Positions 12,196 through 22,671 of a stretch of 42,659 nucleotides of DNA are shown piece by piece (the stretch's first letter is position 1; each line of letters opens with the position of its first letter). The DNA is from a phage: the sequence record PZ386954.1, one strand, 5' to 3'. The translations under genes and the position numbers were made by a program. Below the pieces are notes generated by a model. The model had not been told where the DNA came from. It saw only the letters and a list, made by a program, of their open reading frames with translations, and ran no database searches.

Positions 12196-12624
12196 GTGCT
12201 TGAGTGTATTGACCACGGCCAGAAGGGTAATGCTAATGGCTACGGATATACCAGCCGCTATGTAGATGGCAAGCGGGTAGTGGTTGGGCTGCACCGCGCA
12301 GCTTACTGCGATGCGCATGGCCTGCCTTACTCTGCAATCAAGGGCAAGGTGGTCATGCACCGTTGTGATAACCCACGCTGTATCAACCCTGACCATCTGG
12401 TGTTGGGTACACAGGGAGACAACATGCAGGACATGATGGGCAAACGCCGACACCACAAGGGTGAGGCAACACCGCACGCCAAGCTGACGAGTGAGCAGGT
12501 CGTGCTTATCCGTAAGCTGTACGCTGAGGGCGGCGTAACCCAACGTGAACTTGCGTTGGAGTTCGGTGTATCCCAAACGAATATCAGTGCCATCGTAAGG
12601 GGAGAAACTTTCAGTGTTGGATAA
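12196..12624 (+). CDS. HNH homing endonuclease with C-terminal helix-turn-helix
   Basis: GTG start; HRCDNPRCINPDHLVLGTQGDN HNH motif; C-terminal QRELALEFGVSQTNISAIVRGE; inserted between the zinc-finger gene and the helicase. Confidence 0.8.
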   Translation: MLECIDHGQKGNANGYGYTSRYVDGKRVVVGLHRAAYCDAHGLPYSAIKGKVVMHRCDNPRCINPDHLVLGTQGDNMQDMMGKRRHHKGEATPHAKLTSEQVVLIRKLYAEGGVTQRELALEFGVSQTNISAIVRGETFSVG

Positions 12625-13879
12625 ACTGTTGTTAACGGTGATGCGCGAGCGCGGGAAATACAACTCCCTGCGACACGCCATCCCGGAAGATACAATGAGC
12701 CAGACCACGGGCTATATGCTGCGTGCTTACGGCTCATACTTTGACGCGTTCCCGGACAGTGACTTCATTGACATTGAGACACTGGGTACGCATGTTCGTT
12801 TGAAGACAGGCAGCACGCCTGAACAGATGGCAGCCTTCGATTCGTTGTGCGCTCAGCTCAAAGAGTACAAGCCAACGAAGGAGCAGAAGGAGGGCATCCT
12901 TGACCAGCTCGTAGAGTTGGACACTGCTGGTCGTGCGAACCTGCTAATGCAACGGTACGATAATGGTGAAGAACTTGATATTATCTATGAGCTTGGCCGT
13001 CTGGCTGAGGGCGCACGCCGCAGTCGGGGTCAATCATCCGTTACCGATTACGTCGATGACGATGTTGTTGACATTATTAATCGGACTGATGATGACCAAG
13101 GCTTTAAGTTCGGTCTCATGTGCCTGCAAGATAGCGTACGCGTACTGCTTCCCGGCGACTCCGTTGCAATCGCTGCCCGACCTGACAGTGGGAAGACCAG
13201 CTTCATCGCGTTTAACCTTACGCGAATGGCGGCGACAGCAGCGAAGCTCTATCCGGGCAGACCAATCCTGTGGTTCAACAACGAAGGTCAGGGCATCAAC
13301 ATCATCCCGCGCATCTATCAGGCGGCGCTCAACTGTACGCTCCCGGAACTGAAAGAGCTGGGTGAGGACAGAGGCAAGCTGCACGCTGCGTATGCCAAAG
13401 CACTGGGTGCGCCAGCCAATGTGATTCGTGTTAAGGATATGCACGGCGCGACGCTGGCGAAAGCTGAGCAGGTTATCGAAGCGATGAACCCGTGCATCGT
13501 GGTGTGGGATATGCTTGCCAACTTCAAGCTGTCTGTGTCTGACCCGTCAAGCAACAAGGCGAGTCAGGTCGAGCAGCTATGGCAGGAGGTACGTGAGCTG
13601 GCAGTGCGCCACAACTTTGTGTCGCTGGCTACGGTTCAGGTATCTGCTGATGGTGCCGATGATATGTTCCCGGCACTGGATGCGCTCAAGGATTCCAAGA
13701 CTGGTATCCAAGGGGCGACTGATGTTATCGTGATGCTCGGCAGTGTGGATGACCCATCACTGGCGGCGCGGCGCGGTGTCAGTACGCCGAAGAACAAACG
13801 CCAGATTGCTGGGCGTCCAAGCAACGTGCGGTCGCAGGTACACTTCTTTGCTGACCGCTGCCAATACGAGGATATGTAA
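12614..13879 (+). CDS. replicative DNA helicase (DnaB/T7 gp4 helicase-like)
   Basis: Walker A IAARPDSGKTSF and Walker B-like CIVVWDML; start uncertain (GTG 12614 or ATG 12641). Confidence 0.7.
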   Translation: MLDKLLLTVMRERGKYNSLRHAIPEDTMSQTTGYMLRAYGSYFDAFPDSDFIDIETLGTHVRLKTGSTPEQMAAFDSLCAQLKEYKPTKEQKEGILDQLVELDTAGRANLLMQRYDNGEELDIIYELGRLAEGARRSRGQSSVTDYVDDDVVDIINRTDDDQGFKFGLMCLQDSVRVLLPGDSVAIAARPDSGKTSFIAFNLTRMAATAAKLYPGRPILWFNNEGQGINIIPRIYQAALNCTLPELKELGEDRGKLHAAYAKALGAPANVIRVKDMHGATLAKAEQVIEAMNPCIVVWDMLANFKLSVSDPSSNKASQVEQLWQEVRELAVRHNFVSLATVQVSADGADDMFPALDALKDSKTGIQGATDVIVMLGSVDDPSLAARRGVSTPKNKRQIAGRPSNVRSQVHFFADRCQYEDM

Positions 13880-14241
13880 TGAGCCATTTGAAGGTAGGTG
13901 ACCGAGTAGTAAACATTGATGCACGCAGTGTGCATTACGGTGCGAAGGGTACTGTGGTTGACATCAACGACAAGTACGTGAGCATTGACCGCGACGATGG
14001 TGCGCGTGGTTCTGGTATCAGTGGCTCGTGGACTGCACGCCATGCGTCGTGGGCGCTGATTGGTGACGCTCCGCATGTAGCAGCCACGCCTGAACCGGAG
14101 GCGACTGCCGAGGACTGGAGCTACGCTGAGGCTGAGCGTCTGTACCAAGCAGCGTGCGATGCCATGTCAGTGTACAACCAGTACGTTGAGCGTAAGCCGA
14201 CGACCAGCTACCTGCCCGGCAGCGTGCCGAGTAAGTGGTGA
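13879..14241 (+). CDS. hypothetical protein (120 aa)
   Basis: ATG overlapping helicase stop (TAATG); N-terminal KVGDRVV...GTVVDI KOW/SH3-like feel. Confidence 0.55.
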   Translation: MSHLKVGDRVVNIDARSVHYGAKGTVVDINDKYVSIDRDDGARGSGISGSWTARHASWALIGDAPHVAATPEPEATAEDWSYAEAERLYQAACDAMSVYNQYVERKPTTSYLPGSVPSKW

Positions 14242-14361
14242 GGGGCCGCAGCTATCGCCGTTGCTCTTGCGGCGGCAGTCTGCTGGCTGAGCAGACCAAG
14301 GGCAAGGCCACTGGCAAGACGCTGGTGATTTACGAATGTGAAAAGTGTGGAGTAAAGCAGT

Positions 14362-14553
14362 ATGGAAGAACGCACGTATCGAGCGGCACCCTTAAACCAA
14401 CGTGAGCAAGCAACCATCCGGGCGCAGTACCGGAAGGGTGATGCGTTCCGTGGTGCCGAGGCGCTGGCCGAACGTTTCAATGTGCCGCCTGCTGATGTGG
14501 TGGCAGTGGTGAACTTCACTTATCGCAAGGGGAAACAGAAGCATGATAAGTAA
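14362..14553 (+). CDS. hypothetical small protein (63 aa)
   Basis: ATG with GGAG SD; stop overlaps next gene. Confidence 0.5.
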   Translation: MEERTYRAAPLNQREQATIRAQYRKGDAFRGAEALAERFNVPPADVVAVVNFTYRKGKQKHDK

Positions 14554-15226
14554 TGCAGAAGTCAAGCGCGTATGGGCAGAGGACATCTGCCGTCTGCTGC
14601 AATCACATGAGCTGAACTTTGTGGTTGCCGGGGGAGGGGCAAGGGATACAGCGCTGGGTGTTGAGCCGAAGGACTATGACATCGTGGTCTTCGGTTGGGG
14701 TGGGGATGTAAGCCGCGTGGTCGGTAGATTGGAATGGTTGGACACCAACCTCGAAGCGTATGCCAAGCAGCACAACCTGCCGTATGAGTACATGCCAAGC
14801 TACCACGACGCAGCCGAGGGCGGCGACTTCGGTTCCCGTCTGTACGGTGTGTTCAAGCTCGGCCCGGTTGACATCATCATTAGTAAATGTGGCTGCTGGT
14901 CACAGGTGCTGAGCGAGTTCGACTTCAACCTGAACCAGTTCTACTTCCCGTCCAGTATCCCGCGATACTCCGGGCAGTACAGCCGTGACCCCGGTGAGTT
15001 CATGGCGTACCCGTACGAGCCGAAGCTAACAGCCGAGGACGTGCAGTGGTATCCGGCGCTGGCCAGTCTGGTTGAAAGCTACGACGACCTGCTGACTCTC
15101 CGTGTCTGCCGACCGGATGCCAGCCTGAGTCGTGTGGCCTACATGCTGGAGAAGCACGAGACACACCGCGAGCGCATCGAAGCATACGTCAATCGTATGC
15201 CAGACCATTTGGGTGGCACAGCATAG
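14543..15226 (+). CDS. nucleotidyltransferase, class II CCA-adding enzyme / poly(A) polymerase head-domain-like
   Basis: FVVAGGGARDTALGVEPKDYDIVVFG parallels E. coli Cca [25 protein letters not shown] (GG.(V/A)RD...D.D); 227 aa, head domain only. Confidence 0.7.
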   Translation: MISNAEVKRVWAEDICRLLQSHELNFVVAGGGARDTALGVEPKDYDIVVFGWGGDVSRVVGRLEWLDTNLEAYAKQHNLPYEYMPSYHDAAEGGDFGSRLYGVFKLGPVDIIISKCGCWSQVLSEFDFNLNQFYFPSSIPRYSGQYSRDPGEFMAYPYEPKLTAEDVQWYPALASLVESYDDLLTLRVCRPDASLSRVAYMLEKHETHRERIEAYVNRMPDHLGGTA

Positions 15227-15236
15227 CGGGGGATGA

Positions 15237-17702
15237 ATGGCAATAAGAGCACAGGTAATCGACGTTGAGACTGAGAACCATGAGTGGTATGGGGAGCTGG
15301 CATCGCCGCGCTGCCCGGATAACTATGTGGTTATGCAGGGCCAGCGTGACTGTGTGCTGACCAAGGATGGCTGGGTATTCTACGAGCGCGAGGAGTATCG
15401 GTACAGTTCTCGTGAGGACTGGTTGCAGAACAAGAGTCTGCACCTGCATCCTGACACGAACATTCTGGTAGCTCACAACGCGCCGTATGAATTGAGCTGG
15501 TGGTTCGAGCATTACGGTGACGAGTTCATTGCCTTCCTCAAACGAGGTGGCCGTGTATTCTGTACCGCGTATGCTGAGTACCTGCTGACGCATCAGCAAT
15601 CCCAGTACCCATCCTTGAACGAGACAGCACCGAAGTATGGTGGTACTCACAAGGTGGATGCAGTCAAGGCAATGTGGGAGTCAGGCTACCTGACCAGCCA
15701 GATTGACCCTGAGCTGCTGAGCGAGTATCTGTCCGGGCCGTCCGGGGATATTGAGAACACGACCAAGCTGTTCGTTGGTCAGTGGGCTGAACTGACAAAG
15801 CAGGGCATGTTGCCGATGGCACTGACCCGCTTCGAAGGTATGCTCATGTGGGCGTACATGATGCACGCTGGTCTGCATGTTGACCGCGAGGTAGCCGAGC
15901 GCAACCGTCGCGAGTTACAGGATGCAATCAGTGGGCTGACTGAAACGCTGCTGAGTTACCTGCCAGCCGACATGCCGAAGGAAGCGCGTGAGCAATTCAA
16001 GTTCACGTCAGCTTATCACATGAGCGCCTTCGTGTTCGGTGGTGTGATGAAGTACAAGGCGCGAGTCGAGCGCCGGGATGCCGAGGGCAATCTCATTTAC
16101 GTGAAGGTGGATGCACCACTGTTCAAGCGAGGCAAGGACAAGTGGCTCAAGCATACCAGCGAGTGTGAGTGGGATGACGAGACTGGGTTGTGGTATGACC
16201 CGGTTGAGAAGGTACACCAGACTATCTACACCAGCGGCAAGCACAAGGGCGAGCCGAAGTTTGAGAAGCTGGCTACCGACGAGGTGGATACCAAGTGGGG
16301 TGAGGTGCTGTTCCGTATGCCGGGGCTTCTGCGTGTGCAGGATAAACGAGCGAAGGAGATTGCAGACAACCTCGAATGGGAAGACCCGAAGAAGCCGGGC
16401 GAGTATCTCCGGCGCACAGGTGATTGGGTAGGTAAGCGTAGGCTGGCCGATGGTTCCCCGGTATTCAGTACGGCGGGTGAGGTGCTGGACATTCTGGCAG
16501 CTCGTAAGATTCCCGGCGTGGTGGAGATTGCTGACCGGGCCAAGGCACAGAAAGACCTCGGCACCTACTACCTCAGCGAGACGTTCGATGAAGAAGGTAA
16601 CGTGACTGGCCAGTCGGGGATGATGCAGTTCATCCAGCCGGACAGTATCGTACACCACACCATCAACATGACCGCGACCGAGACGACGCGCTTATCTTCG
16701 GCGCGACCGAACAGCCAGAACTTGCCACGTAAAGGTACGAGTAAGGTTAAGCAGATGTTCACCTCCCGCTTTGGTGAAGGTGGCCGCATCGTTGAAGCTG
16801 ACTACTCGGCACTGGAAGTGGTGGGGCTGGCCGGGTTCAGTAAGGATAAGAACCTGATTCGTGCATTGCTCGATGGTATCGATATGCACTGTATGCGATT
16901 GTCAGCTCAGCTCAACGAGCCGTACGAGGACGTGCTTAAGAAGTGCAAGGATGAATCCCATCCTGACCATGCACGGTACAGTCAGATGCGTACTGACATT
17001 AAGCCGAAGGCGTTCTCATACCAGTACGGTGCAACAGCGCGAGGTATTGCTTACTCGACTGGTTGCTCAGAGGAAGAAGCGCAGGCGTTCATCGACAACG
17101 AGAAGGGTCTGTTCCCGGAAGTTGAAGAATGGTTCGACGCGGTTATCTTCCCTGCCGTAGAGAAAAGTGGACAGAGCAATGTATTCAAGGAGCAGGACGA
17201 GAACGGGCGGTGGCAGGTGTATCGCCGTGGTCACTTCCGTTCGCCGGGTGGAACTTGTTATTCATTCCGTCAGTACGAGAAATGGAACAAGGCGGCGCGT
17301 GCTCACCTGATGGAATACAAACCAACTCAGATGCGTAACTATCCTATTCAGGGTGAGACCGCATTTTGGGTACAGGGAATCGGTGGCCTGCTGTTCCGCT
17401 GGCTGCTATCGAACGACTTCTTTGGTGGGCGTGTGGTTCCCATCAACCAAGTGCATGACGCATTCTATTTCGACATTGCACCTGACTGCCCTCACGAGTT
17501 CTTCGTTGGACTCAAGGCAATCATGGAGAGCATCCCGGAATACTATAACCACGTATGGCCAGAGTATAACCTGACAGTGCCGTTCCCGGCAGAGGTGGAA
17601 GCAGGGCCAAGCATGTACGAGAAGCACCACGTAGAGACGACAGCCGATGAAGTGCTGGAGTTTAAGAGACAATTCCTGTTGAGTAAGGGTATCGCATTAT
17701 GA
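15237..17702 (+). CDS. DNA polymerase, family A (T7 gp5-like)
   Basis: 821 aa; DYSALEVVGLA (motif A), KPKAFSYQYGATARGI (motif B), INQVHDAFYFD (motif C), RPNSQNLPRK. Confidence 0.9.
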   Translation: MAIRAQVIDVETENHEWYGELASPRCPDNYVVMQGQRDCVLTKDGWVFYEREEYRYSSREDWLQNKSLHLHPDTNILVAHNAPYELSWWFEHYGDEFIAFLKRGGRVFCTAYAEYLLTHQQSQYPSLNETAPKYGGTHKVDAVKAMWESGYLTSQIDPELLSEYLSGPSGDIENTTKLFVGQWAELTKQGMLPMALTRFEGMLMWAYMMHAGLHVDREVAERNRRELQDAISGLTETLLSYLPADMPKEAREQFKFTSAYHMSAFVFGGVMKYKARVERRDAEGNLIYVKVDAPLFKRGKDKWLKHTSECEWDDETGLWYDPVEKVHQTIYTSGKHKGEPKFEKLATDEVDTKWGEVLFRMPGLLRVQDKRAKEIADNLEWEDPKKPGEYLRRTGDWVGKRRLADGSPVFSTAGEVLDILAARKIPGVVEIADRAKAQKDLGTYYLSETFDEEGNVTGQSGMMQFIQPDSIVHHTINMTATETTRLSSARPNSQNLPRKGTSKVKQMFTSRFGEGGRIVEADYSALEVVGLAGFSKDKNLIRALLDGIDMHCMRLSAQLNEPYEDVLKKCKDESHPDHARYSQMRTDIKPKAFSYQYGATARGIAYSTGCSEEEAQAFIDNEKGLFPEVEEWFDAVIFPAVEKSGQSNVFKEQDENGRWQVYRRGHFRSPGGTCYSFRQYEKWNKAARAHLMEYKPTQMRNYPIQGETAFWVQGIGGLLFRWLLSNDFFGGRVVPINQVHDAFYFDIAPDCPHEFFVGLKAIMESIPEYYNHVWPEYNLTVPFPAEVEAGPSMYEKHHVETTADEVLEFKRQFLLSKGIAL

Positions 17703-18592
17703 CCGCATCTGTATTGAACCGCATGAACTCCATCGTCGAACAGTATGTTGACGAGGAAGAACTTGACTTTAACGAAGCCACGTCTGGTGGTGGTAAGCTG
17801 CTGCCGGAAGGTAAGGCACTGGCACGTCTGGTTGGCTACATTGAAGTGGGGCCGAGCGTAACCAAGCAGGCACCGGACAAGCCGCCTGTCAATAAGTTCT
17901 TCCTCCAGTTCGCGCTGTGGGGCAAGGCCAAGAACGGCGAGACTTACCACGAAGTTGTCAATGGTAAGATGGTGCCGGGCAAGGTGCGCACGCAGTTCAT
18001 CGCTGTGAAGAAAGACCTCAACAGCAAGTCCGGCGCATACAAACTGTTCAAGCGTATGAACCCGGACAAGACTGCGAAGCACTTCGCGCAGCTTCTGAAC
18101 CACACCTTCATCGTTCCGATTATCCACAACGAATCGGGCGAGGGTGAGAACAAGAAGGTGTACGCCAACATCGACCTTGAGAACATCATGCTCGCGGTTG
18201 ACCCGGTGACTGACCAGCCGTACCCGGTGCCGGAGGTTGAGGACGAGACTCTGTTCAAGCTGTTCCTGTGGAACCGTCCGACCAAGGAAGACTGGGAATC
18301 CCTGTACATCGAAGGCAAGAACGACGATGGTAAATCCAAGAACTGGATTCAGGATAAGCTGCTGGAATCTCCAGAGTTCCCCGGCTCTCCGCTTGACCTG
18401 CTGCTGAATGGTGCAGGTGCTGGCTCAGCGATTGCCGAGCTGCCGGAGCTGGGCGACGTGGGTGCGCCGGAGGAAGTGGCCGAGGTCAAGGAAGAAGTGA
18501 AGGAGCTGGAGACGGCTGGCGCTGCTGACAAGACCAGCACCAAAGAGCCGGACGTAACTGGTGACGCTGACTTCGGGCTGCCGAGTCTGTAA
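17699..18592 (+). CDS. hypothetical protein (297 aa) with acidic C-terminal region
   Basis: ATG overlapping DNAP stop (ATGA); C-terminal EVKEEVKELE...DADFGLPSL. Confidence 0.6.
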   Translation: MTASVLNRMNSIVEQYVDEEELDFNEATSGGGKLLPEGKALARLVGYIEVGPSVTKQAPDKPPVNKFFLQFALWGKAKNGETYHEVVNGKMVPGKVRTQFIAVKKDLNSKSGAYKLFKRMNPDKTAKHFAQLLNHTFIVPIIHNESGEGENKKVYANIDLENIMLAVDPVTDQPYPVPEVEDETLFKLFLWNRPTKEDWESLYIEGKNDDGKSKNWIQDKLLESPEFPGSPLDLLLNGAGAGSAIAELPELGDVGAPEEVAEVKEEVKELETAGAADKTSTKEPDVTGDADFGLPSL

Positions 18593-19017
18593 TGGATTGC
18601 ATAGACCACGGTAAACGCGGCAACCACTTTGGCTACGCCACCACCACGAGGACGGTAGGTGGCAAGCGCCGGGCTGGTATCAAGCTGCATCGTCTGGTCT
18701 ACTGTGAAGCGCATGGCCTGTCTCTCCTTGACATTGAGGGGCAGGTCGTGCGCCATACCTGCGACAACCCGCGCTGCATTAACCCCGACCACATGGTACT
18801 CGGTACTCACCAAGACAATGTGGCCGACCGGGTAGCGCGTGGCCGTGGGGCAGTAGGCGTGAGGAATGGCAGAGCCGTACTGTGTCCCGCCGTAGTGGAC
18901 GCAATCCGTAGCCGCTATGCGAATGGCGGCATCAAGCAATCTGAGCTGGCTGAGATTTATGGCGTGAGTCAAACGCAGGTCAGCCGCATAGTGAGGGGAG
19001 AGTCATGGGAAAGTTAG
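18592..19017 (+). CDS. HNH homing endonuclease, paralog of 12196-12624
   Basis: MDCIDHG...HTCDNPRCINPDHMVLGTHQDN; C-terminal ELAEIYGVSQTQVSRIVRGE. Confidence 0.8.
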   Translation: MDCIDHGKRGNHFGYATTTRTVGGKRRAGIKLHRLVYCEAHGLSLLDIEGQVVRHTCDNPRCINPDHMVLGTHQDNVADRVARGRGAVGVRNGRAVLCPAVVDAIRSRYANGGIKQSELAEIYGVSQTQVSRIVRGESWES

Positions 19018-21410: not shown

Positions 21411-21625
21411 CACGAACCCTGTACCAAGAAGATGTGGTGCAGCTTAAAGAAGATGGCCTCTCGATTGAGTGGGAGGCCAACACTCAGGTTGAGCTGTACA
21501 AAGATGGCACCGTCTGTATTTCTCAGGACGGTGAGGAAGTCTGGTTGCCTTGGGCGTACGTCCGAGATATTATCTTTGCTCTTGAGGAAGCACACGATGC
21601 ACATGAAAGACACCGTAGTAGTTGA
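21407..21625 (+). CDS. hypothetical small acidic protein (72 aa)
   Basis: GTG start overlapping upstream stop (GTGA); overlaps next gene start by 29 nt. Confidence 0.4.
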   Translation: MTRTLYQEDVVQLKEDGLSIEWEANTQVELYKDGTVCISQDGEEVWLPWAYVRDIIFALEEAHDAHERHRSS

Positions 21626-22100
21626 CTTGGATGGTACGCTGGCTGATGGCCGCTGGCGTTTGCACCTGCTGCCTCCACCGGAGCGTCGGCACCTTGATGA
21701 AGCGTGGGCCGAGTTCAACTTGGCTGGCGCTGACGACCCTGCGTTTCAGGACACGATTGACATTGTGAACGCTCTGGCCCTCACGTATCGCATTGTCATC
21801 CTGACCGGACGCGGAGCCGTGGCCCGTGAAGTAACAGAGCAGTGGCTCGATGAAGCTGGTGTGGTTTACGACAAGCTAATCATGCGGGAGATTGGTGACT
21901 GCCGTAAGGACACTGAGATGAAGCGTGCAGCGCTGGAGGACATCGGCATTGAGAACATCGTGTGTGCCTTCGACGACCTGCCCCACATCGTGGACTTCAT
22001 GCGTGGCCTCGGCATCACAGTGTATGAAGTGACCCGGTACGAGGACAACCATGAGTATGTCCACGCCAATGCCAAATACGATGGAGACAAAGATGAGTAA
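21597..22100 (+). CDS. HAD-superfamily phosphatase
   Basis: N-terminal VVVDLDGTLADG (DxDGT motif I); ATG at 21597 with GAGGAAG SD; track ORF extended upstream. Confidence 0.65.
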   Translation: MHMKDTVVVDLDGTLADGRWRLHLLPPPERRHLDEAWAEFNLAGADDPAFQDTIDIVNALALTYRIVILTGRGAVAREVTEQWLDEAGVVYDKLIMREIGDCRKDTEMKRAALEDIGIENIVCAFDDLPHIVDFMRGLGITVYEVTRYEDNHEYVHANAKYDGDKDE

Positions 22101-22671
22101 GAAGGGTAAGCAGTTTATCTTAGACCCGTCCCGTAATTGGGGTACTGGCACACTGCTGAGCGACATTGCTGAGCAGGGTATCATCCTGACGTACGACGAG
22201 CCGTATGACGTGCCGAACGATAGCCGGGACTACTACACCTGCGTGAAGGATGGTAAGACTCACCTGCTTGTGCTGGAGCCTTACGAGGTGAAGGAAGTCG
22301 AGACTGCATTCATCCCGGTTGACCCGTACGACCCGGCCTCTGATGTTGAGGTGGCCGTGGCCAAGAGTGCCGGGCCGGGCGGTATGAAGTTCGACGGCGG
22401 CAAGCCCCGCATGTCCTTGTTGTTCGATGGCTGCCCGAATGCGCTGGAGGCTGTGGCCAGCGTGCTCACCTTCGGCGCAGAGAAGTATGCAGCCCACTCG
22501 TGGCAGACTGTACCGGAAGGTGAGGAACGCTACAAGTCGGCGCTGCTCCGGCACCTGACGGCGGTGGGCAAAGGTGAGGAACTGGATAGCGAATCCAACC
22601 TACACCATCTGGCGCACGCCGCGTGCAATGCGCTGTTCATTCTGGAACTCGAATTAAGGAAACGCAAATGA
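22093..22671 (+). CDS. conserved phage protein; C-terminal domain resembles the family sometimes annotated dATP/dGTP diphosphohydrolase N-terminal-like or DUF
   Basis: KFDGGKPRMSLLF...ALEAVASVLTFGAEKY...RYKSALLRHL...HHLAHAACNALFILE; assignment from memory of the family, not searched. Confidence 0.5.
   Translation: MSKKGKQFILDPSRNWGTGTLLSDIAEQGIILTYDEPYDVPNDSRDYYTCVKDGKTHLLVLEPYEVKEVETAFIPVDPYDPASDVEVAVAKSAGPGGMKFDGGKPRMSLLFDGCPNALEAVASVLTFGAEKYAAHSWQTVPEGEERYKSALLRHLTAVGKGEELDSESNLHHLAHAACNALFILELELRKRK

Follow-up and report, generated by a model that had tools for sequence, protein, structure and literature searches.

A phage-restricted, minimal class II-type nucleotidyltransferase that is probably not a CCA-adding enzyme in the strict sense

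The small nucleotidyltransferase (NTase) of phage PZ386954.1 shows a class II-type head domain in its fold, in the homology of its motifs A and B and in its invariant catalytic residues, its gene is strongly constrained, and its family is restricted to phages; the Arg-Arg pair, the EDxxR motif and the body and tail of the class II enzymes have been lost. From sequence and structural models we consider the protein homologous to the heads of class II (CCA-adding/poly(A) polymerase) enzymes, and its motifs indicate that it is not a canonical CCA-adding enzyme. As an observation the gene adds little, since the family is already annotated (phrog_1614, RefSeq, UniProt) and was published and discussed in 2020 as a putative tRNA nucleotidyltransferase. 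What the analysis adds is that this label deserves suspicion: the catalytic core is kept, but the residues for the choice of ribose and of C or A are lost in every member, and the common designation "tRNA/CCA nucleotidyltransferase" is, judged from the sequences, probably wrong in the strict sense.

The window, which is the whole stretch of 42,659 nucleotides that was analysed, is the complete, permuted genome of a Bonnellvirus-type Autographiviridae coliphage, with the taxonomy taken from phage J8-65. A 5-kb probe matched 26 records and was 99.1% identical to Escherichia phage aldrigsur; the NTase of phage mellemsur is 100% identical to the one studied here. No tRNA genes are encoded by the phage in the whole window. 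The open reading frame that the preliminary description had picked out for its class II head motif is real, the peptide quoted there corresponds to residues 26-51, and the gene and its elements are collected in Table 1. The overlap with the stop of the preceding ORF suggests that the two may be translationally coupled. The sequence of that short ORF is helix-turn-helix-like. Compared with J8-65, the NTase gene has a dN/dS of 0.124 at a dS of 0.85, and the adjacent DNA polymerase gene, which served as control, has 0.085. At 0.12, the NTase gene is under purifying selection.

Table 1. Features of the NTase gene, its upstream region and its product, with positions in the window
Feature	Position	Strand	Remarks
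63-aa ORF (phrog_31596)	14362..14553	+	stop overlaps NTase start by 11 nt; homologs J8-65 gp16 and LIMEzero gp20
Shine-Dalgarno-like AAGGGG	14527..14532	+	10 nt 5' of the NTase ATG; read from the sequence
NTase gene, 227-aa minimal class II-type nucleotidyltransferase (phrog_1614)	14543..15226	+	start codon ATG at 14543 and stop codon at 15224-15226
Motif A, residues 26-51, FVVAGGGARDTALGVEPKDYDIVVFG	14618..14695	+	D44 and D46 as metal carboxylates, after a predicted GG turn for nucleotide binding
Beta-hairpin, residues 100-114, with K105 and candidate third carboxylate D110 (V-D-I)	14840..14884	+	strands 100-106 and 109-114 confidently modelled
Variant motif B, residues 125-134, EFDFNLNQFY	14915..14944	+	aligns to class II RRDFTINA; x-Phe for Arg-Arg
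C-terminal element, residues 186-207, L-x3-R190-x-D192-x4-R197...K204	15098..15163	+	helix 195-207 in the model; conserved basic face

In PHROGs the protein matches phrog_1614, "nucleotidyltransferase", over its full length (residues 6-224, E 1.6e-42, 147 bits), and the same label is given in RefSeq to the orthologs of J8-65, Lidtsur and LIMEzero and in UniProt to the gene. The identity is 84% to J8-65 gp17 and 40% to LIMEzero gp22, and structure comparison in BFVD gave a TM of 0.73-0.82 to the LIMEzero NTase. Family members are 153-254 aa long. With tblastn, relatives were found in 212 phage records, from podophages with Pseudomonas, Vibrio, Klebsiella, Escherichia, Proteus, Yersinia, Pantoea and Pectobacterium as hosts, and a scan of IMG/VR yielded 74 loci, nearly all of them on contigs of 39-47 kb. 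The same fold occurs in a viral structure library in many podophage proteins of 145-254 aa, where the labels vary between "nucleotidyltransferase", "poly A polymerase head domain" and "tRNA nucleotidyltransferase". The small NTases of Autographiviridae (LIMEzero gp22, J8-65 gp17 and PP47 gp28) belong to the same family, with a shared fold, size range and location in the replication module, and nothing essential sets the protein of PZ386954.1 apart from them; its own subgroup is the longest, with 222-229 aa against a family median of 185 aa, and has insertions at residues ~85-99 and ~145-185.

No cellular relative of the NTase was found in a scan of 100,044 bacterial and archaeal species genomes, and protein searches with the family reached phage-sized contigs only; the family is phage-restricted. 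It is not strictly confined to podophages of about 40 kb, because a distant member of 175 aa lies on a 146-kb IMG/VR contig (L082, 4941-5468); its motif B reads V-D-Y-N-L-S and not F-D-F-N-L-N. Many family members (homologs P0017, P0025 and others) carry the precomputed Pfam accession PF26128, of which a literature search found no mention; it may stand for a Pfam family newly set up for just these NTases. Evseev et al. 2020 (PMC7693777) described proteins of the family, including gp28 of Pectobacterium phage PP47, as putative tRNA/CCA nucleotidyltransferases on the basis of homology modelling, with a tree rooted on the LIMEzero protein, and reported them from 37 of the 46 Autographiviridae that infect Pectobacterium, against just 60 among more than 500 others. 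We found no biochemical or genetic characterisation of small phage NTases in the literature, and the LUZ19 homolog appears in one evolution study only through a list of its mutations.

The protein has the alpha/beta NTase fold of the Pol-beta superfamily, and the signature hG[GS]-x9-13-Dh[DE]h of that superfamily is present as A29-G30-G31, 12 residues and D44-Y-D46-I. Motif A, GGGARDTALGVEPKDYD, aligns with motif A of Cca and PcnB, which in class II reads GGxVRDxxLG...DxD. A profile search of the PF01743 type, which had been proposed in the preliminary description, missed the threshold (14.6 bits against a gathering threshold of 23) and covered motif A alone; relatives reach 12-21 bits, and the distant family members, at 18-21 bits, are still below it. 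The class II homology itself stood up in profile-profile comparison, where hhalign against an alignment of class II heads and necks gave a probability of 96-97% and E values of 7e-9 to 5e-11. That alignment comprised 11 sequences, namely Cca and PcnB of E. coli together with five CCA enzymes from phages and four orthologs of Cca, and the phage-encoded enzymes were used to build it because a protein search with E. coli Cca had given close orthologs only. Against PcnB alone, hhalign aligned residues 10-136 (87%, E 4e-6) and placed EFDFNLNQFYF on RRDFTINSLYY. The NCBIfam models for PcnB and Cca gave E values of 0.001-0.1 with the NTase, and when the family profile was run against PDB sequences the top ten were PcnB and CCA-adding enzymes (E 0.009-0.2).

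Structure comparison, like the profiles, supports homology in the head domain. Of the protein's 227 residues, only around 137-147 can be superposed on the heads of class II enzymes, which are 340-520 aa long; the head therefore resembles class II, while body and tail are missing, just as the preliminary description had said of a protein of this length. It had also reckoned with placement in an unrelated family or a lack of catalytic carboxylates; neither was seen, as class II heads are the best relatives and both aspartates of the DxD are invariant.

Conservation was analysed in 98 unique family sequences with a median identity of 28% to the NTase of PZ386954.1. Eight residues, G30, G31, R34, D35, D44, D46, D110 and D127, are invariant in all 98, and F126, N129 and N131 are conserved in 97. 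K105 is conserved in 93 of the sequences, and R99, K43, K204 and L186 in more than 90% each. In the C-terminal element, position 197 is always basic (98/98), position 204 is so in 94/98 and position 190 in 92/98, and position 192 is acidic in 84/98. From the alignments, the family signature can be written as GGxxRD...DxD, V-D-I, x-F-D-[FYC]-N-[LIMV]-N and R-x-D-x4-R. D44 and D46 are the predicted metal-binding pair. D110, on the modelled strand V109-D110-I111, is most probably the third catalytic carboxylate. Two other candidates for this position came from hhalign, E82 from the alignment to PcnB and D95 from the one to the class II profile; their poor conservation (26/98 and 43/98) led us to reject both. 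The C-terminal element may be what is left of the class II neck/motif D helix, although the alignment of the neck shifts between hhalign modes. An intact catalytic set together with strong constraint argues for an active enzyme, and with a dN/dS of 0.12 we think that the NTase very probably is one.

The features that give class II enzymes their specificity are a different matter. Motif B in class II is DxxRRD, where "RRD" recognises ribose, and it is preceded by the BxA motif and a flexible loop; poly(A) polymerases (PAPs) have in addition the signature [LIV][LIV]G[RK][RK]Fx[LIV]h[HQL][LIV] (PMC2910056). EDxxR, the motif D, serves as an amino-acid template for CTP and ATP; under functional selection neither its D nor its R could be substituted (PMC11784652). 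We scanned 36 family proteins and 68 proteins from viral contigs for these motifs with regular expressions, and compared them with the 7 class II references that could be scored. All 7 references have the RR ahead of the motif B Asp, and none of the family proteins do (0/36 and 0/68, or 0/104); an x-Phe stands there instead in 36/36 and 68/68, and the D-F-N-L-N core is kept. An [ED]DxxR at +37 to +45 after motif B is likewise present in 7/7 references, against 1/36 and 1/68 family proteins (2/104), both with the motif misplaced; the single case among the 36 lies 75 residues past motif B, beyond the +37 to +45 range. The region of motif D is filled by a family-specific element, R190-x-D192-x4-R197. 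The PAP signature is present in PcnB and in 0/36 family proteins, and the NTase of PZ386954.1 reads D-F-G-S-R-L-Y-G.

In the region of the BxA motif and flexible loop, D110 and D127 are separated by 16 residues, compared with about 33 in class II, and an alternative hhalign register puts R99 and K105 in this region, with no conserved basic-x-acidic triplet. For motif C, the spring element (DxxGxxxDxxxG), hhalign sets SSIPxxxG against the class II xIDPxxG, in an alignment that is unstable and in a segment that is deleted in short members. The neck, body and tail domains that bind tRNA are absent from this protein of 227 aa, as they are from a family with the median length given above. Compared with CCA-adding enzymes of class II from E. 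coli (Cca), B. stearothermophilus (1MIV) and T. maritima (3H37), the phage NTase lacks the RR of motif B, EDxxR, body and tail, and the neck is only vestigial in most members; compared with PcnB (poly(A) polymerase I, 3AQL), it lacks the PAP signature and the basic RNA-binding C-terminal half. By these motifs, the protein does not qualify as either a CCA-adding enzyme or a PAP. PcnB has a pI of 9.7 and the phage NTase one of 4.9. Acidity was tried as an argument against RNA binding and abandoned: the family has a pI of 4.3-6.5, yet the head and neck of E. coli Cca are also acidic (pI 5.3), and charge is therefore non-discriminating. S. pneumoniae has a stand-alone protein, NP_344798.1 (2LA3), named "CCA-adding enzyme head domain", which is cellular and only 12% identical to the phage NTase.

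The role we consider most likely, and favour tentatively, is untemplated addition of nucleotides to the 3' end of an RNA, be it tRNA or another, with a non-canonical specificity. To our knowledge, every characterised class II enzyme extends RNA 3' ends, and for this reason an RNA 3' end is the likeliest acceptor. MenT-like small NTases without RNA-binding domains can act on tRNA ends. The NTase would have descended from the class II (bacterial CCA-adding/poly(A) polymerase) lineage as a head domain with a short C-terminal helical remnant, and would be expressed alongside the DNA-metabolism (middle) genes. D44, D46 and D110 would bind two Mg2+ ions, and the GG turn, R34, K43, R99, K105 and the basic helix with R190, R197 and K204 would hold the NTP and the acceptor end. 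In a two-metal transfer, an NMP would then be moved without template onto a nucleic-acid 3'-OH, presumably the RNA 3' end of a host tRNA or another RNA in the infected cell, as repair or as tailing. Since the Arg-Arg, EDxxR and the body and tail that measure tRNA are missing, CCA would not be made by the canonical mechanism, and the specificity for nucleotide and acceptor probably differs from that of class II and is possibly relaxed. The preliminary description had listed tRNA repair, RNA tailing and nucleotide-signal synthesis and called none of them established, which was a correct judgement.

A bolder reading, possible but in our opinion unlikely, is that the NTase is a phage-only class II offshoot that has been re-tooled, with an invariant Phe in place of the ribose-sensing arginines and with the base template gone, so that it adds dNMP or arbitrary nucleotides to an unconventional acceptor. 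It may tail phage DNA 3' ends inside the replication module, or it may rebuild or cap tRNA 3' tails by a non-CCA route and in that way evade cutting, extension or pyrophosphorylation of tRNA ends by the host.

The first of these options touches on a dNTP-using, terminal-transferase-like enzyme acting on DNA 3' ends in replication, end protection or repair of the phage genome, to which we give a small chance. Both ribose-recognising arginines are replaced in every member, the invariant Phe (97/98) adjoins the motif B Asp, and the gene always lies inside the replication module beside a polymerase, helicase or primase. Against this, class II enzymes are not known to work on DNA, the protein has no DNA-binding domain, and a steric gate at F126 is no more than a prediction from sequence. 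The position in the module moreover varies, and T7-like phages keep unrelated accessory genes there too. Bonnellvirus and Waewaevirus have the order helicase, small ORFs, NTase and DNA polymerase; Ghunavirus WRT has lysozyme, NTase and primase-helicase; and in Klebsiella phage phi1_146033 and Vibrio phage OWB the NTase is downstream of the DNA polymerase. The DNA-metabolism/replication module is the sole constant of the location across the phages compared. The preliminary description placed the gene just upstream of the DNA polymerase, which is true here, with a gap of 10 nt between the NTase stop and the polymerase gene, but because the position varies among phages this adjacency is not a family trait. 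A functional tie between NTase and DNA polymerase was considered from their adjacency and dropped, as the neighbours differ among the Bonnellvirus, Ghunavirus, Klebsiella and Vibrio phages.

Nucleotidylation of a small molecule, or synthesis or modification of a nucleotide signal, for instance by a counter-defence enzyme, is also rather doubtful, since such folds score lower than class II heads and the motif B homology points specifically to the class II enzymes that act on RNA ends. None of the defence NTase models of PADLOC (MenT/AbiEii, CD-NTases and others) gave a match at E<=1 with six diverse family members. The MenT/AbiEii toxins belong to a different family (DUF1814), with no PADLOC or Pfam match to the phage NTase, and they are cellular toxins with antitoxins, whereas the NTase is a solitary, phage-only gene.

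That the NTase is a genuine CCA-adding enzyme, which restores CCA on host tRNAs damaged by host nucleases as many database labels would have it, seems improbable to us. CCA-adding enzymes are its nearest relatives in sequence and structure, full-length CCA enzymes are encoded by large phages, the role has been proposed (Evseev 2020, PMC7693777), and there are immune systems that hit tRNA 3' tails, such as Cas12a3 (PMC12851939) and toxSAS (PMC11559606). The RRD ribose sensor is however missing in 104/104 family members and EDxxR in 102/104, with the other two misplaced; a body or tail that could anchor the tRNA elbow is missing, and the PF01743 threshold is not reached. The full-length phage CCA enzymes (428 phage records) come from large, tRNA-rich myoviruses and jumbo phages and stand apart as a group. 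Because the ribose (RRD) and base (EDxxR) motifs fail, canonical CCA synthesis is the least likely of the roles in the preliminary description.

Still less probable is nucleotidylylation, e.g. AMPylation, of a host or phage protein. Protein modification is known from minimal Pol-beta NTases, among them MNT antitoxins and GlnE, and the NTase is small, acidic and devoid of a nucleic-acid-binding module, but Pfam, NCBIfam and PADLOC show no specific resemblance of it to those families, and enzymes acting on polynucleotide ends are its best relatives. That the NTase is a remnant without catalysis, left to bind a nucleotide or a partner protein, is hard to believe, even if several class II specificity motifs are gone, given metal-binding and GG residues invariant in 98/98 sequences at ~28% median identity and a dN/dS of 0.12.

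Being phage-restricted, strongly constrained, host-biased and present in more than 200 therapeutic-type podophages, the NTase is a reasonable candidate for a new RNA-end, DNA-end or counter-defence activity, and it is small enough for quick biochemistry.

Some other genes of the region should be mentioned. The gene at 21432-22100 (+), called "polynucleotide kinase" in relatives, encodes only a PNKP-type HAD 3'-phosphatase domain (PF25109, residues 60-201) without a kinase domain, and its true start may be internal. This phosphatase and the NTase were considered as a pair for 3'-end repair, and the idea was rejected: the phosphatase is found in 1,230 phage records and the NTase in 212, with a different host spectrum, which gives no support to a specific pairing between them. 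The end of the phosphatase gene overlaps with the gene at 22051-22671 (+), whose product of 206 aa begins with a domain of the dATP/dGTP diphosphohydrolase N-terminal type (PF18909, E 5e-33). The PHROG labels for relatives of this protein conflict, with endolysin/RNAP inhibitor on one side and pyrophosphohydrolase on the other.

Two genes 5' of the NTase, at 13879-14241 (+), a protein of 120 aa has weak, sub-threshold matches to Xrn1 SH3-like (E 6e-5) and Phage_ProQ_C_like (E 0.05); this small protein could bind RNA and would then be a possible substrate-binding partner of the NTase. The 56-aa ORF at 14235-14405 (+) starts with GTG, overlaps its neighbours and is unannotated in J8-65. It has a CxC and a CxxC pair, is zinc-ribbon-like with a weak RNHCP match (E 0.002), and may be either a small zinc-ribbon protein or spurious. 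Right after the DNA polymerase, at 17699-18592 (+), lies the gene for a conserved 297-aa protein (phrog_862, E 4e-76; LIMEzero gp24) with no Pfam domain and an acidic, low-complexity C-terminus. The replication module also contains two paralogous homing-endonuclease genes of the HNH_3 and helix-turn-helix type, 12196-12624 (+) at the junction of primase and helicase and 18592-19017 (+) at the junction of the phrog_862 gene and the exonuclease. In J8-65 neither site is interrupted, which points to recent mobile insertions.
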